Positions 195 through 5,099 of a stretch of DNA of 5,250 nt are shown here, one piece after another; the first letter of the stretch is position 1, and every line of letters starts with the position of its first letter. Source of the DNA: a virus (taxonomy: Duplodnaviria > Heunggongvirae > Uroviricota > Caudoviricetes); IMG/VR virus record IMGVR_UViG_2609459846_000012. One strand, 5' to 3'. The notes beneath the pieces are model-generated. The model ran no database searches. It had not been told where the DNA came from and saw only the letters and a list, made by a program, of their open reading frames with translations. The position numbers were made by a program, and so were the translations under genes.

Positions 195-430
195 CCCATC
201 CACTAACACAGAGATCTAACCATGAATACTGGATATACGCCCGAACAGGGGCGGGGCTTCGTTCGTCCTGGTGAAACTAAAAAGCCATGTTATCGGGTAT
301 TTTCAGGCATAAAAAAAGCGGCCCCGATAAGGAACCGCCTTTCTGAACAATTAACCTGCTGCGAAAAAAATGGATCAGTGCAGGGGAATTATATCAACCG
401 TGTGGTGAAGCGCCACTATTGCCGGATAAC

Positions 431-463
431 AAGCAAAACAAAGGCGACCGCAAAAGGGTCGCC
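431..463 (-). terminator. Rho-independent terminator for the leftward RHH operon
   Basis: On the minus strand: GGCGACC-CTTTTGC-GGTCGCC (7-bp perfect GC-rich stem, 7-nt loop) followed directly by TTTGTTTTGCTT; lies 67 nt downstream of the minus-strand ORF ending at 530. Confidence 0.55.
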
Positions 464-529
464 AGTGGGAACAAGGGAAAACAAAAGCATCGCCAACAAT
501 GCCACATTTGCGGCTGGTGGGCAATGCAA

Positions 530-718
530 TCAGTCTGGTTCAGTTCGTTGCCATACCTGCAATGAGCGCTTTTCCCTGTACTCTTTAAGGAATTGCTCAA
601 GGGCAAAAGCACATGGCGCGAATCTTTCTGATTCATGCTCTATCTTTCTGCGCCGTCTTTTCCGTGTCGGTGATAATGTTTTGGTCAATTCTTTATCGGT
701 CATTGTGTTGTCCTGCAT
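530..718 (-). CDS. hypothetical small basic protein (57-62 aa), second gene of leftward operon
   Basis: ORF-track ORF MQDNTMTDKELTKTLSPTRKRRRRKIEHESERFAPCAFALEQFLKEYREKRSLQVWQRTEPD. The internal ATG (MTDKEL, position 703) has a better Shine-Dalgarno (AGGA, 7-nt spacer) than the first ATG. Followed by the intrinsic terminator. No recognisable family. Confidence 0.4.
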   Translation of the reverse strand: MQDNTMTDKELTKTLSPTRKRRRRKIEHESERFAPCAFALEQFLKEYREKRSLQVWQRTEPD

Positions 719-760
719 AGCAATGCGCCGTAATACCTTACACCACGGCGCTGGTGATGG

Positions 761-940
761 TTATTCCTGCTCTTTGGCCTTGCGACGCTGGCGGTATTCA
801 ACTTCTCGCTTTAATGCTGCTGTTACAAACTGCCCTGTACTTTCACCAGGCATTTTTACCGCCTCAACATTGTTCATAACTTCATGCGGAACCCTTGCCG
901 CAACTGTTTGTGATTTTGCGTTTACTGCTTTTGTTGCCAT
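761..940 (-). CDS. ribbon-helix-helix (CopG/Arc/MetJ-like) DNA-binding protein, 59 aa
   Basis: Hand-translated minus-strand ORF (below the ORF-track size cutoff): MATKAVNAKSQTVAARVPHEVMNNVEAVKMPGESTGQFVTAALKREVEYRQRRKAKEQE*. Predicted beta-strand (TVAARVPHEV), helix A, G-x-S/T turn (PGESTG), helix B fits the RHH fold pattern. SD-like AAGGGG about 7 nt upstream of the ATG. Divergent from the replication operon. Confidence 0.6.
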   Translation of the reverse strand: MATKAVNAKSQTVAARVPHEVMNNVEAVKMPGESTGQFVTAALKREVEYRQRRKAKEQE

Positions 941-989
941 GTTGTGTACCCCTTACAAAAAACAAATGCAGTATGCAGGAAAAAAAATA

Positions 990-1043
990 AGTGTTCAACA
1001 CTTGACGTGTTTAACACCAGAGCTTAAATTGGTGTTCAACACC
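990..1043. promoter_or_regulatory. divergent promoter/operator region with three palindromic operator-like sites
   Basis: AGTGTTCAACACT (990-1002), GTGTTTAACAC (1007-1017), GGTGTTCAACACC (1031-1043). Rightward sigma70-like promoter: -35 TTGACG (1002-1007), 17-bp spacer, -10 TAAATT (1025-1030). Leftward promoter candidate on the minus strand: -35 TTGAAC (within palindrome 1), 17-bp spacer, -10 CATACT (complement of 970-975). Confidence 0.5.
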
Positions 1044-1139
1044 TTACTGATGCAAGGTGCAGAAACGACGAAACCCGGCAGTGCGCTAACACTAACCGGG
1101 CTTCTAACCACCAACGATAGAAAGCGTATCGAGGTAGCT

Positions 1140-1346
1140 ATGAGAAATTATACCAGACACCCGCAAGGGCGGGACTCGTACAACCTGAATAAATACATCT
1201 GGCGTTTTATCGCCCTGAGCACGGCACAACCGCGCGTGATTACCATTGAGGCCACCAGCGAACAGGAAGCGCGTCAGCAATCTCCTGATGGCTGCGTGAT
1301 GGTATTCGCTGCCCGTATTCGTCAGGGGGTACGCCATGTGCAATAA
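1140..1346 (+). CDS. small phage protein, possibly Icd-like (host cell division inhibitor-like) family, 68 aa
   Basis: In-frame ATG inside the spurious 374-aa ORF with SD GAGG upstream: MRNYTRHPQGRDSYNLNKYIWRFIALSTAQPRVITIEATSEQEARQQSPDGCVMVFAARIRQGVRHVQ. The W.F.A....ATSE.EAR....V.VFAAR pattern matches my recollection of Icd-like small proteins annotated beside P4-family primases; the family call is from memory and unverified. Confidence 0.45.
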   Translation: MRNYTRHPQGRDSYNLNKYIWRFIALSTAQPRVITIEATSEQEARQQSPDGCVMVFAARIRQGVRHVQ

Positions 1347-1596
1347 CACCCGTCCGGACGCAGCCGCCGAAGCCATCAAAACGCTGATGCACGCGCTGAT
1401 TGATATTTCTGTTATCGCAGACAAGGCGCATAAGCGCGCCACCAGCGAAACAGAATATGCCGGGGCTTTCGTTCCTCACTCACTGGCTGTTATGCAACTT
1501 AGTGCGGATATGGCGCTGAATGAGGCTAAAGCCATCCTGATTGCTGATTGTGAAAATGGGGGGGGGTTATGCGTGATGATCGTTTTAATTCCCTGA
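1336..1596 (+). CDS. hypothetical protein, 86 aa
   Basis: ORF-track ORF; SD AGGGGG 6 nt upstream of the ATG; overlaps the previous ORF by 11 nt (translational coupling). C-terminus crosses a G9 homopolymer (1558-1566). Confidence 0.5.
   Translation: MCNNTRPDAAAEAIKTLMHALIDISVIADKAHKRATSETEYAGAFVPHSLAVMQLSADMALNEAKAILIADCENGGGLCVMIVLIP
1558..1566 (+). repeat. G9 homopolymer tract at the junction of two overlapping ORFs
   Basis: Nine consecutive G seen directly; encodes NGGG near the end of ORF 1336..1596 and acts as SD for ORF 1569..1802. Confidence 0.9.
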
Positions 1597-1802
1597 AACA
1601 GGAATTTTCCGGCGTTCCTGATGATGCGGCTGATGCGCTTTCGTCAATGCCAGAGCTTATTAGAGCGGCTTTTTTCTTACTTTCCACGAGAGAATATAAA
1701 TCAACGGGGCTTGATGTACTGAATATCGCCGCCGATTATGCGGAATATGTGGCAGAGGCGCGTTATAGAAGAAAATTTCCTGAGGATGTAAGCCATGCGT
1801 GA
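1569..1802 (+). CDS. hypothetical protein, 77 aa
   Basis: ORF-track ORF; the G9 tract immediately upstream serves as SD; overlaps the upstream ORF by 28 nt and the downstream ORF by 8 nt (ATGCGTGA). Confidence 0.5.
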   Translation: MRDDRFNSLKQEFSGVPDDAADALSSMPELIRAAFFLLSTREYKSTGLDVLNIAADYAEYVAEARYRRKFPEDVSHA

Positions 1803-2028
1803 TATTTACCACGAAACAATAGACCGCGCATTTCTTGCACTTTCTCACAGTGAAAACATGCTGGAAATATTGCGCATATGGCTTGAAACACTTGGCGACA
1901 ATGAACGCGACAAACAAAAATCAAGAATTGCCACGGCATTAATAACGCTTCTTGAGCCTGTAATAATGGAACTGCAAGAAATAGATCTATTGCACGACAG
2001 ATATAAAGAACAGCACACCGGAGAATAA
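1795..2028 (+). CDS. hypothetical protein, 77 aa, predicted mostly helical
   Basis: ORF-track ORF; SD GAGGA 8 nt upstream; start overlaps the upstream stop. Confidence 0.5.
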   Translation: MRDIYHETIDRAFLALSHSENMLEILRIWLETLGDNERDKQKSRIATALITLLEPVIMELQEIDLLHDRYKEQHTGE

Positions 2029-2033
2029 AAATA

Positions 2034-2333
2034 ATGAAACTTAAATATTCTGGCTTAACTGCCAGTGGCAACACTCACCCTAAATTTACGCGCGGCGATA
2101 TTTACCGCGACCAGTACGGCGGCACGGTAATGATTAAGGACGTGGAAGAACGGCGCGTAACCTACCGCCGTGAAGGTTACGAATATGATTGCGTGATGCC
2201 TGTTTATCAGTTCCGGCGTGATTTTTCTCTGGTACAGACCGCGCCGCATAACGTGTCCACCAGCAACGCCAGGGCACGGGCAAACATCCAGAAGCTGAAA
2301 ACCATGATTAACGGATTCAGGGGTAAAAAATGA
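2034..2333 (+). CDS. hypothetical protein, 99 aa, immediately upstream of and coupled to the replication gene
   Basis: ORF-track ORF; SD GGAGA upstream; stop overlaps the alpha-like start (ATGA). Occupies the position that epsilon/orf151 hold relative to alpha in P4 as I recall it, but no sequence support for homology. Confidence 0.55.
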   Translation: MKLKYSGLTASGNTHPKFTRGDIYRDQYGGTVMIKDVEERRVTYRREGYEYDCVMPVYQFRRDFSLVQTAPHNVSTSNARARANIQKLKTMINGFRGKK

Positions 2334-4144
2334 AACTGGCACCGAACGTAAAACAGCAGTCACGCGGCATAAAACACAAAGAAACAGAAGTCATTATTTT
2401 TGCGGGTAGTGATGCCTGGTCACACGCAAAACAATGGCAGGAACATGACGCGCGTATGGCCGGAGATAATGAGCCTCCTGTGTGGCTTGGGGAGCAGCAG
2501 TTATCCGAACTGGATAAGCTGCAAATTGTGCCGGAAGGCAGAAAATCCGTGCGCATATTCAGGGCCGGATATCTTGCGCCAGTAATGATAAAGGCGATTG
2601 GTCAGAAGCTGGCGGCGGCAGGCGTACAGGATGCAAATTTTTATCCTGAGGGTATGCACGGCCAGGAGGTGCAGAACTGGCGCGAATATCTGGCCCGTGA
2701 GCGCCAGAATCTTTCTGATGGTCTGGTGATTCAGCTTCCTGTTAAGAAAAAAACAGAAGACAGCGCCGCACCACTGGCGCTTAACCAGATGGGAGCAAGC
2801 CAGCGCGGCGAAGTTCTCCTGGCACATTATGGCGGTGAACTGGCGATTCATGCCGACTCTGACACTGTTCACCATTACAACGGCGTTGTATGGGAGCCGA
2901 TTCAGGATAAAGAGTTACAGCGTGCTATGGCGCAGATTTTCATTGATGCGGAGATCAGCTATTCGCAGAACGCCATTAAATCGGCGGTCGATACCATGAA
3001 GTTAAGTTTGCCTGTAATGGGGAATACAGCCCGTAACCTGATTGGATTCAGTAACGGGGTATTTGATACCAGAACAGGTAATTTTCGGGAGCATAACAAA
3101 AACGACTGGTTGTTAATTGCCAGTGAATTACCTTTCAGCCCACCAGCAGAGGGGGAAACGCTGGCAACACATGCGCCGAATTTCTGGAAGTGGTTACGCT
3201 GCTCGGTGGCAGAGAATGACCGCAAGACGGATCGCGTGCTGGCTGCATTATTCATGGTGCTGGCGAACCGGTACGACTGGCAGTTATTCATTGAGGTAAC
3301 AGGTCCAGGGGGAAGTGGTAAAAGCGTGATGGCGGAGATTTGCACCATGCTGGCGGGTAAGGCCAACACAGTATCGGCAAGCATGAAGGCGCTGGAAGAT
3401 GCAAGGGAACGCGCGTTAGTGGTTGGCTTTTCGCTGATTATCATGCCGGATATGACCCGCTACGCTGGTGATGGCGCAGGAATTAAGGCTATTACAGGCG
3501 GTGACAAGGTGGCAATCGACCCGAAGCATAAAGCCCCCTACTCAACACGCATTCAGGCGGTCGTGCTGGCGGTGAACAATAACGCCATGTCATTCAGTGA
3601 CCGCAGCGGGGGGATCTCACGTCGTCGGGTGATATTCAATTTTTCGGAGGTTGTACCGGAGAACGAGCGCGACCCCATGCTGGCAGAAAAAATAGAAGGA
3701 GAGCTGGCGGTTGTGATTCGCCATCTGCTTACTCGTTTTTCTGACCAGGACGAAGCTAAACGCCTGCTGTATGAGCAGCAGAAATCAGAAGAAGCTCTGG
3801 TGATAAAACGCGAGGGCGATTCGCTGGTGGACTTCTGTGGCTATCTCATGTCGTCGGTAATGTGTGATGGTCTGTTAGTGGGTAATGCCGAAATTATTCC
3901 GTTCAGTCCGCGCAGGTATCTTTATCACGCCTATCTGGCATATATGAGGGCACACGGATTCGGTAAACCTGTAACACTGACGCGCTTCGGTAAAGATATG
4001 CCGGGGGCAATGGCGGAATATGGCAGGGAGTATATAAAACGGAAAACGAAGCACGGTTTGCGTTCAAATGTGACACTGACAGAGGATTCAGAAGACTGGA
4101 TGCCATCATGTGCATCGGTCACAAATGACGACAGCAAAAATTAA
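2330..4144 (+). CDS. P4-alpha-like replication initiator: D5_N-like region plus SF3 (P-loop) helicase, 604 aa
   Basis: Walker A VTGPGGSGKS (nt 3302-3325); Walker B-like hydrophobic run ending in D (LIIMPD); motif C-like VVLAVNNN; upstream GFSNGVFDTRTGNFREH resembles the D5_N / P4-family primase C-terminal region. Cognate iterons lie immediately downstream. The N-terminal ~200 aa are unassigned. Confidence 0.85.
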   Translation: MKLAPNVKQQSRGIKHKETEVIIFAGSDAWSHAKQWQEHDARMAGDNEPPVWLGEQQLSELDKLQIVPEGRKSVRIFRAGYLAPVMIKAIGQKLAAAGVQDANFYPEGMHGQEVQNWREYLARERQNLSDGLVIQLPVKKKTEDSAAPLALNQMGASQRGEVLLAHYGGELAIHADSDTVHHYNGVVWEPIQDKELQRAMAQIFIDAEISYSQNAIKSAVDTMKLSLPVMGNTARNLIGFSNGVFDTRTGNFREHNKNDWLLIASELPFSPPAEGETLATHAPNFWKWLRCSVAENDRKTDRVLAALFMVLANRYDWQLFIEVTGPGGSGKSVMAEICTMLAGKANTVSASMKALEDARERALVVGFSLIIMPDMTRYAGDGAGIKAITGGDKVAIDPKHKAPYSTRIQAVVLAVNNNAMSFSDRSGGISRRRVIFNFSEVVPENERDPMLAEKIEGELAVVIRHLLTRFSDQDEAKRLLYEQQKSEEALVIKREGDSLVDFCGYLMSSVMCDGLLVGNAEIIPFSPRRYLYHAYLAYMRAHGFGKPVTLTRFGKDMPGAMAEYGREYIKRKTKHGLRSNVTLTEDSEDWMPSCASVTNDDSKN

Positions 4145-4158
4145 ACTTATGGAATAAC

Positions 4159-4386
4159 TGTTCACCACTGTTCACCCTGTTATAAATATCTTTTATATCA
4201 GTACATTATAGGGTGAACAGTTATTTGTGAACTGTTCACCAAACTATTCACTGTTCACCTTTTTGATTATTTATTGAGCTTTAAGGGTGAACAGTGGTGA
4301 ACAGTTGGTGAATAGTTTTTGTGAAACTGTTCACCCCTTAACATTATGAATAAAAAGGGAAAATATCAAAAGGTGAACAGGTGAAG
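4159..4386. repeat. origin of replication: iteron array of TGTTCACC octamers in both orientations, interspersed with AT-rich tracts
   Basis: Forward TGTTCACC at 4159, 4169, 4233, 4252, 4328; reverse GGTGAACA at 4212, 4286, 4296, 4372; degenerate copies at 4177, 4245, 4307, 4380. Adjacent copies are spaced 10 bp apart (4159/4169; 4286/4296). AT-rich stretches at 4177-4210, 4260-4284, 4336-4370, 4389-4418. The octamer is identical to the type I iteron bound by P4 alpha in ori and crr, as I recall it. Confidence 0.8.
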
Positions 4387-4431: not shown

Positions 4432-4677
4432 GTGACAACGAAGCACGCAAAAAAACCACAATCTCACGCCCTTGATTTGACAGAACACTGGCTGAGGGTG
4501 GCGATAAAAATCATCGACCGCAACGCGGGAGAAGGGTACGCAAAAGCACATCCCGAACTGGTAAGCGCATTCATGACCACGGCAGCGGCAAACTTTGCCA
4601 CGCTGACAGAACGGGAGATTGCCGAAGCGGAACAGGTGACAACCATCAACGTTAAAACCGGAGAGCAGACAGCATGA
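4432..4677 (+). CDS. hypothetical protein, 81 aa (GTG start)
   Basis: ORF-track ORF; GAGG 8 nt upstream of GTG; stop overlaps the start of the SSB-like gene (ATGA). Confidence 0.55.
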   Translation: MTTKHAKKPQSHALDLTEHWLRVAIKIIDRNAGEGYAKAHPELVSAFMTTAAANFATLTEREIAEAEQVTTINVKTGEQTA

Positions 4678-5099
4678 CAGCACAGATAGCGGCTTACGGG
4701 CGGCTGGTGGCTGACCCGCAGTTAAAGACCACCAGCAAAGGGACACAAATGGCGATGGCGAGTATGGCGGTTCCCCTGCCGTGCAGCCAGGCAGATGACG
4801 GAACGGCGACGATGTGGTTATCTGTCCTGGCGTTTGGCAGACAGGCCGACGCACTGGCAAAACACCACAAAGGCGAACTGGTGAGCGTGGCGGGTAACAT
4901 GCAGGTGAGCCAGTGGACAGGCCAGAACGGGGAAACGCGGCAGGGCTGGCAGGTTATTGCAGACAGCGTAATCAGTGCGCGAACGGCGCGACCGGGCGGC
5001 AAAAAAGGTCAACAGGGCCAGGCCACTGACGCACTGAACAGGGCAAAACAACAGACAAGCCAGCACGATGACCCGTACGGGGATAACATACCGTTTTAA
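4674..5099 (+). CDS. compact single-stranded DNA-binding (SSB-family, OB-fold) protein with conserved acidic C-terminal tip, 141 aa
   Basis: By-eye alignment to E. coli SSB: IAAYGRLVADPQL vs VILVGNLGQDPEV; MWLSVLAFGRQADALA vs EWHRVVLFGKLAEVAS (W54 and F60 equivalents kept); SQWTGQNGETRQGWQVIAD vs RKWTDQSGQDRYTTEVVVN (W88 equivalent kept); C-terminus DDPYGDNIPF vs SSB tip DFDDDIPF. The Gly/Gln-rich linker is much shorter than in host SSB. Confidence 0.7.
   Translation: MTAQIAAYGRLVADPQLKTTSKGTQMAMASMAVPLPCSQADDGTATMWLSVLAFGRQADALAKHHKGELVSVAGNMQVSQWTGQNGETRQGWQVIADSVISARTARPGGKKGQQGQATDALNRAKQQTSQHDDPYGDNIPF

Follow-up and report, generated by a model that had tools for sequence, protein, structure and literature searches.

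The junction between two small genes of an Escherichia coli phage-satellite island is the site of a natural fusion/fission polymorphism, which results from homopolymer microevolution at a probably coupled gene junction. Depending on the number of G's in a single coding tract, the two genes (ORF1 and ORF2) specify two chains or one, or ORF1 runs on into ORF2 and gains an extended tail. The window, that is the whole 5,250-nt stretch of DNA analysed here, carries nine G's (G9) and has the extended form. We consider it probable that the tract is a slippage hot spot in a G-run that doubles as Shine-Dalgarno sequence and glycine codons at a satellite gene junction, that its different frame states are tolerated, and that its length drifts in a near-neutral manner.

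Direct reading of the window gives ...GATTGTGAAAAT-GGGGGGGGG-TTATGCGTGATGATCG... around the tract, with the immediate context GAAAAT GGGGGGGGG TTATGCG, so that the nine G's lie within ORF1, immediately 5' of the ORF2 ATG (Table 1). A preliminary description of this DNA had given exactly this position for the tract, had placed ORF2 in the +2 frame of ORF1, and had stated that the gain of one G or the loss of two would fuse the ORFs. These readings are correct: the distance between the start codons (1569-1336 = 233 = 3x77+2) puts ORF2 in the +2 frame, and in silico the two edits yield single chains of 155 and 154 aa, respectively. The tract is the sole homopolymer of nine or more among the 5,250 bases of the window, compared with a mean of 0.01 such runs per dinucleotide-preserving shuffle (two of 200 shuffles contained one). 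In this G9 allele the TGA of the ATGCGTGA junction motif is out of frame for ORF1, and the last nine residues of ORF1 (LCVMIVLIP) are the start region of ORF2 read out of frame. A second ATGCGTGA overlap at the ORF2/ORF3 boundary shows that this motif is the normal junction design of the gene chain. Both ORF2 and ORF3 are 77 aa long and begin with MRD; paralogy of the two was rejected, as no similarity between them is detectable, and the common start comes from the ATGCGTGAT junction.

Table 1. Features of the window, in window coordinates (+, strand as presented).
Feature	Position	Strand	Description
Tightly packed same-strand gene chain	1140..4144	+	From gene-order annotation and ORF list
icd-like gene	1140-1346	+	Directly before ORF1
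ORF1	1336..1596	+	86 aa in the G9 allele; residues 1-77 are the conserved protein (phrog_5146)
Recombination island around the tract	1510..1600	+	About 96-100% identity where the ORF1/ORF2 bodies of relatives show only about 46-63% (identity profile)
G9 homopolymer	1558..1566	+	Gly-Gly-Gly codons at the 3' end of ORF1; slippage hot spot; sole Shine-Dalgarno-like purine run before the ORF2 ATG
ORF2	1569..1802	+	77 aa (phrog_24341); own ATG; identical to WP_001204078.1
ATGCGTGA junction motif	1569..1576	+	ATG is the ORF2 start; TGA (1574-1576) is the ORF1 stop in G8, G11 and G5
TGA, ORF1 stop in the G9 frame (also G6 and G12)	1594..1596	+	28 nt inside ORF2
Second ATGCGTGA start/stop overlap	1795..1802	+	ORF2 end 1802, ORF3 start 1795
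ORF3	1795-2028	+	After ORF2
DUF4222	2034-2333	+	After ORF3
D5-type primase	2330-4144	+	D5_N, Pox_D5 and DUF5906 domain matches

Editing of the tract length in silico on the window sequence, followed by translation of the resulting ORFs, defines three classes of product. With G5, G8 or G11, ORF1 is 78, 79 or 80 aa long, has the C-terminus ...GG(G)YA* and stops at the TGA of ATGCGTGA. G7 gives a 154-aa fusion with the junction ...CENGGVMRDDRF..., and G10 a 155-aa fusion with the junction ...CENGGGVMRDDRF..., the overall pattern at the join being CENGG(G)VMRDDRF. With G6, G9 or G12, ORF1 is 85, 86 or 87 aa long, ends ...LCVMIVLIP* and stops at the downstream TGA, ...GGGLCVMIVLIP of G9 replacing the ...GGGYA of G8. 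The ORF2 ATG is kept in every class, so the products are fused, split or tail-extended and no state is an obvious “off”. PGAP annotates a single 465-nt CDS in the G7 loci of strains MBT-5, O157:H7 SS17 and Z1324SEC0014, and two CDSs of 240 nt and 234 or 222 nt, overlapping by 8 nt, in EPSSH018, MEI4BO-21, CAU16175 and STEC383; of these split loci MEI4BO-21 has the interrupted tract GGGGGTGG and the other three have G8, as does ZLWT, where the genes are also split. PGAP coordinates in G8 relatives are, for example, 337..576 and 569..802, for products of 79 aa and 77 aa, and it is in such relatives, rather than in the window's G9 allele, that the upstream stop overlaps the downstream start, as in a coupled pair. 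Homologues encoded as one fused protein, for which the preliminary description had suggested looking, are annotated as a single CDS both for G7 (154 aa, MBT-5 and O157:H7 SS17) and for G10 (155 aa, E. coli 042).

The frequency of each tract length was determined by searching 5,426 complete E. coli genomes for probes of the form 24 nt + Gn + 23 nt, a probe length at which one gap puts identity below 99%, and by counting exact matches at the best place per genome. The junction is carried by 737 of these genomes, with exact matches to G6 in 7, G7 in 371, G8 in 164, G9 in 94 and G10 in 15; G11 is also present, as 58-nt matches. Among 85 IMG/VR loci, an independent set, 34 have G8 (plus three with the interrupted form G5TG2), 23 G7, 18 G9, four G10 and two G11 (plus one interrupted). 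In a separate alignment, five loci have G9, G9, G8, G7 and the interrupted GGGGGTGG. The range among relatives overall is G5-G11, in agreement with the earlier suggestion that the tract is prone to slipped-strand mispairing. Where the tract is interrupted (GGGGGTGG), the frame is the canonical split one.

When flanking haplotypes are de-duplicated, 80 combinations remain, 19, 38, 16, four and three of them with lengths 7, 8, 9, 10 and 11, respectively. This distribution is unimodal at 8, lacks a three-base periodicity and shows no enrichment of the fused lengths 7 and 10 (23 of 80). The frame classes canonical:fused:extended stand at 41:23:16 (chi-square p = 0.002), with the canonical class in excess. 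This excess could be due to mild selection favouring the split state or simply to a distribution centred on 8, the two being equally explanatory. The frame-class counts from complete genomes are unusable as a signal of selection, since the O157:H7 haplotype accounts for 227 of the 371 G7 genomes.

The tract evolves faster than its surroundings, since G7, G8 or G9 is found on elements that are at least 99.4% identical over 5.25 kb. Between the element of strain E200139 and the window there are differences at 15 of 5,250 positions, and within 1100-2139 the sole difference is one G; those of AST19 (G7) and E300010 (G8) are otherwise identical to the window inside ORF1/ORF2. Flank groups were defined by identity of 230 nt upstream and 240 nt downstream (470 nt in all), and nine of the 12 groups with several members contain more than one tract length, requiring at least 10 independent events. 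Close relatives thus differ in tract length while their flanks are identical, as do alleles of contingency loci. Within one large clone the tract is stable. An 86-nt probe with O157:H7-specific flank finds the O157:H7 haplotype with G7 as an exact match in 227 genomes, and G8 on an O157:H7-type flank in 14 genomes, of which seven are O55:H7 and none is labelled O157:H7. As O55:H7 is the lineage that gave rise to O157:H7, a single G8/G7 difference appears to have been inherited through the clone, which speaks against switching at very high rates, at least for G7.

Distant members of the family, at 38-56% identity, are stand-alone proteins. Those similar to ORF1 are 73-95 aa long and end in ...DVYP, ...GVDHA or ...GAHHA, without the CENGGG tail, and those similar to ORF2 are 75-77 aa long and start exactly at what is Met78 of the fusion. 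In a related module (L014, strain AST20) the junction is ...CAAGGGGCGCACCATGCATGA, i.e. a G-rich ribosome-binding site followed by an ATGnnTGA overlap, with no long G-run. Strain E118 carries the identical ORF2 protein (WP_001204078.1) after an unrelated 121-aa gene, with the junction AGGGGGG-TAAAC-ATGCGTGA. The ancestral design is therefore two coupled genes, given that the distant relatives are two genes without a G-run and that G8, which recreates this design, is the modal length. The proposal of one true ORF, broken in the window, was rejected on account of the stand-alone distant genes and the canonical overlap of the modal G8 pair. Partial matches to relatives start or stop at window positions 1514, 1526 and 1569, and together with the identity profile these breakpoints mark the region 1510..1600 as a mosaic recombination joint.

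Neither ORF1, ORF2 nor the fusion has a match in Pfam, NCBIfam, PADLOC or PDB sequence searches. PHROGs contains both split and fused families, namely phrog_5146 (ORF1), phrog_24341 (ORF2) and phrog_2512 (the 154-aa form), all of unknown function. The family is small, with 49 representatives at 50% clustering among 1.8 billion proteins. The exact ORF2 sequence is present on at least 1000 contigs, and in one 90% protein cluster 547 contigs carry the 79-aa form and at least 1000 the 154-aa form. An AlphaFold2 model of the fusion is all helical, with a pLDDT of 47.8 and a pTM of 0.37, and as a prediction is too poor to show packing of the two halves. ORF1 and ORF2 are both under purifying selection, pN/pS being about 0.28-0.35 for each half whatever the frame class; these values are weak evidence when taken class by class, as alleles change class faster than substitutions accumulate. 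Recurrent natural fusion and fission of this kind suggests that the two small proteins work jointly.

The window matches the chromosome of E. coli E203449 at 100% identity, and the elements of other human isolates are 99.4-99.9% identical to it. In strain E200086 the island begins with an integrase, an HTH (AlpA-like) regulator, YlcI/YnfO, the icd-like gene, ORF1, ORF2, ORF3 and DUF4222, followed by the D5-type primase, a small ORF, SSB, ProQ/FinO, the major capsid protein and an HK97 prohead protease. Domain matches are consistent with this gene order. Right after the primase, at 4158-4380, come about a dozen GTGAACAG iterons. Judged by its int, alpA-type, primase, iteron, capsid and protease genes, the island appears to be a PICI of the capsid-forming kind. 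Like the cf-PICIs described previously (10.1101/2022.09.08.507074), it has int, an alpA-like HTH gene and primase-rep, then an HK97-type capsid gene and prohead protease; unlike here, that paper does not treat ORF1/ORF2 or the tract, and the words “frameshift”, “primase” and “icd” are absent from its text. In O157:H7 the same ORF1/ORF2 module is found in a different island of about 10.5 kb, encoding a RepA helicase and a capsid of another type, between roxA and phoQ; the annotation of this distinct island rules out that the O157:H7 copy is EcCIEDL933. In a scan of one genome per species, the only other species positive for the junction was Shigella flexneri, and the ORF1/ORF2 family is essentially restricted to Escherichia and Shigella.

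Under the explanation we favour, ORF1 (about 79 aa) and ORF2 (77 aa) would have begun as separate, translationally coupled genes joined by the standard junction of the operon, ATGCGTGA, where the ATG of the second gene overlaps the TGA of the first, preceded by a ribosome-binding site rich in G. The sub-family considered here has a pure run of about eight G's at that site, where replication slippage would gain or lose G's. Alleles with G8, G11 or G5 would retain the canonical coupled pair. Those with G7 or G10 would make a single chain of 154/155 aa with a Gly-Gly(-Gly)-Val linker. In those with G6 or G9, ORF1 would extend 28 nt into ORF2, with a hydrophobic tail of nine residues and the stop/start overlap gone. 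The window belongs to this last class, one step (+1 G) away from the modal G8. The start codon and ribosome-binding site of ORF2 would be retained throughout, and the two halves presumably work as two chains or as one, so that all three classes would be tolerated and the tract would drift. From its position 6 nt before the ORF2 ATG, GGGGG at 1558-1562 is the putative Shine-Dalgarno sequence, and ORF1 and ORF2 are probably translationally coupled. We assume that the fused and split forms are functionally equivalent. The G9 extension into ORF2 may reduce coupling and alter ORF2 output.

Translationally coupled pairs with ATGA or ATGnnTGA start-stop overlaps occur in phage and operon gene chains, and the G8 alleles and the ORF2/ORF3 junction are of this type, with an 8-nt ATGCGTGA overlap after a G-rich ribosome-binding site within the upstream gene. 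The G9 allele differs from them in that its overlap is broken, the stop lying 28 nt past the ORF2 ATG, and G7 and G10 in having no upstream stop at all. The polymorphism also resembles “Rosetta-stone” fusion/fission pairs, in which two modules occur either as one polypeptide or as adjacent products, suggesting joint action; there the states are fixed in different lineages, whereas here they interconvert repeatedly within one species by 1 nt. SSR contingency loci, which act by slipped-strand mispairing (Neisseria, Haemophilus, Campylobacter and Bordetella pertussis), likewise have coding poly-G tracts that vary in length between close relatives and move the frame. Length changes at this junction recur, and either direction is possible. 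The differences are that the outcome here is fused, split or tail-extended rather than on or off, since the downstream half has its own start, and that the host is mismatch-repair-proficient E. coli, with a tract that is short (7-9) and stable across the O157:H7 haplotype. A report on B. pertussis distinguishes microevolution at homopolymeric tracts from phase variation (PMC1891110), and “microevolution at a homopolymeric tract” is the closest description of the junction, which it fits better than “phase variation”.

The sequence-level properties of a contingency locus are all present, i.e. a coding tract, polymorphism among close relatives and consequences for frame, and such a locus, in which the G-run is maintained for fast reversible switching between fused and two-chain products or between high and low ORF2 expression and is adaptive (for example in helper-phage interaction or induction), is unlikely but has several observations in its favour. 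A pure homopolymer has been kept in mosaic elements whose identity is otherwise only 78-84%, few haplotypes being interrupted; every frame class is common, with recurrent switching on identical backgrounds, and tract length differs between closely related strains of O145 and O26 (G6 versus G7). The conservation of the run is, however, also explicable by a Shine-Dalgarno/glycine-codon role and by the recombination island, the length spectrum has no frame periodicity, G7 is fixed in the 227 O157:H7-haplotype genomes, and the one-step difference from O55:H7 resembles a single inherited event. E. coli is normally mismatch-repair-proficient and short tracts are stable there, and to our knowledge repeat-based phase variation is rare in this species. 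In mutation-accumulation lines of mismatch-repair-defective E. coli, the hot spots for indels include mononucleotide runs, 8-bp G:C runs among them (PMC8510543), and hot-spot behaviour of homopolymers is documented mainly in such deficient lines. The stronger proposal of a satellite-borne contingency locus, where slippage between G7 and G10 would reversibly turn a two-subunit pair into a fused chain or shift ORF2 dosage, is decidedly improbable as judged from these sequences; if true, satellite populations would hedge between states differing in helper-phage interaction, induction or replication control. A tract that switches quickly and alters satellite behaviour would represent an unusual case, a repeat-based contingency locus borne by a mobile element of E. 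coli, and the present evidence does not require such switching.

It would be quite surprising if the fused 154/155-aa protein were the functional gene and the split alleles, the window's included, were loss-of-function frameshifts of a dispensable accessory gene. G7 is the most numerous length in complete genomes (371 of 737), fused forms make up the top protein matches and a PHROG family exists for the full-length form, but the G7 surplus is largely due to one clone and the de-duplicated mode is G8, which exactly reproduces the standard ATGCGTGA overlap of the operon. Furthermore, the distant relatives occur as separate genes, ORF2 is found by itself in E118, and both halves are intact in split alleles, with pN/pS of about 0.3. 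Very doubtful, too, is recoding within G9, by which -1 ribosomal frameshifting on G GGG GGG or transcriptional slippage would make some fusion, so that one allele gives both products. Programmed -1 frameshifting or transcriptional slippage gives two products in lambda G/GT, dnaX, IS-element transposases and Shigella mxiE, and long homopolymers, mainly A/T runs, can cause RNA-polymerase slippage. As in those systems, two overlapping frames meet at a slippery homopolymer, where a shift would produce a fusion: G GGG GGG at 1560-1566, in the ORF1 frame, is a match to X XXY YYZ in form only, and ORF2 is in the -1 (+2) frame. Unlike in those systems, the frame relationship is unconserved, relatives being found in all three frames; the run consists of G and not of A/T, it is the DNA itself that varies, and ORF2 has its own start and exists stand-alone. 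Folding of the junction region predicted no hairpin downstream of the heptamer and no significant or conserved stimulatory structure. The sole predicted hairpin, at 1561-1594, includes the tract itself; as a regulatory or frameshift-stimulating element, which would sequester the ORF2 start, it was rejected, since the fold is no better than that of shuffles (z = 0.05) and the 3' arm is unconserved, differing in loci L007 and L008. Finally, a homopolymer sequencing error had been raised in the preliminary description. If sequencing or assembly had erred, the real tract would be G8 or G10, and the records identical to the source are indeed chromosome-level WGS assemblies (CM accessions). Against this, G9 with identical flanks is present in the 94 complete genomes, from many laboratories, and in the 18 IMG/VR loci, and the window's exact 86-aa ORF1 is on 16 contigs and sister 86-aa variants on 43 and 179 (NCBI, ENA and Logan). 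With all forms on many contigs and G9 in this number of complete genomes, such an error is effectively excluded.

The polymorphism bears on how the family is annotated. Pipelines call the locus one gene or two, of 77-87 or 154/155 aa, by a single G, and one family is consequently scattered over several protein clusters and PHROGs (phrog_2512, 5146 and 24341). Treating the forms as alleles of one junction tidies the annotation and warns against “correcting” G9. The suggested joint action of ORF1 and ORF2 provides a lead on an uncharacterised module near the satellite primase.

The small genes around the G-run are tightly packed: at all junctions of the icd-like/ORF1/ORF2/ORF3 chain the start codon overlaps the preceding stop (ATGTGCAATAA, ATGCGTGA), and each junction has a G-rich ribosome-binding site upstream of it. 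ORF2 and ORF3 encode unrelated proteins that both begin with MRD because ATGCGTGAT is common to the two. An RNA hairpin is predicted at window positions 1561–1594, in which UUAAUUCCC is paired with the ORF2 AUG and part of the G-run; if formed, it would sequester the ORF2 start. Its fold is no better than that of shuffled sequences (z = 0.05), and the sequence of its 3′ arm differs in the related loci L007 and L008.

Comparison with L007, L008 and a third related locus, L010, shows that approximately 90 nt flanking the G-run (1510–1600) are 96–100% identical, versus 46–63% for the bodies of ORF1 and ORF2. Many partial BLAST matches start or end at positions 1514, 1526 and 1569, and judged by these sequence patterns the segment looks like a mosaic recombination joint where genes meet. 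Constraint acting at the nucleotide level may alternatively be the source of the identity.

Features located in the window outside the G-run
Feature	Position	Strand or orientation	Context
Terminator-like hairpins (two)	443–463, 486–503	minus	
YlcI/YnfO gene	761–940	minus	
SymR-like match	1067–1139	minus	antisense, immediately upstream of icd-like gene
Start/stop overlap junctions	1336–1346, 1795–1802		icd-like/ORF1/ORF2/ORF3 chain
GTGAACAG repeat cluster, about a dozen copies	4158–4380	both	AT-rich gap 3′ of primase gene

A 374-aa mechanical ORF (222–1346, plus strand) does not represent a gene; it passes antisense through the YlcI/YnfO gene. In the near-identical elements of E. coli strains E200086 and E200139, PGAP calls just 222–759, as an incomplete pseudogene, and the annotation of a third such strain, AST19, instead has a 57-aa CDS on the minus strand (530–703). 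The match to the SymR antitoxin RNA scores 32.8 bits (E = 0.002), below the Rfam gathering threshold of 61, and could be due to chance or represent an antisense regulator of the icd-like gene.

Twelve copies of GTGAACAG (at most one mismatch) lie in the cluster downstream of the primase gene, and 22 matches are found across the entire window where 3.8 are expected; from its sequence, the cluster is probably an iteron-type replication origin of the satellite. The annotation of the near-identical locus L013 (E. coli E300010) lists the SSB gene (4673–5098, corresponding to window 4674–5099) as a pseudogene interrupted by an internal stop codon.

The ORF1–ORF2 module, in its G7-fused form, is also found in a different integrase-bearing island of approximately 10.5 kb (L101 of O157:H7 SS17, 8017–18449), located between roxA and phoQ. 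In this island a frameshifted RepA-family helicase replaces the D5-type primase, a PerC-family regulator is additionally encoded, and the capsid, decoration and small-terminase set is unlike that of the window element. As the module occurs in an island of different type, it is therefore a small-gene module common to more than one satellite type.
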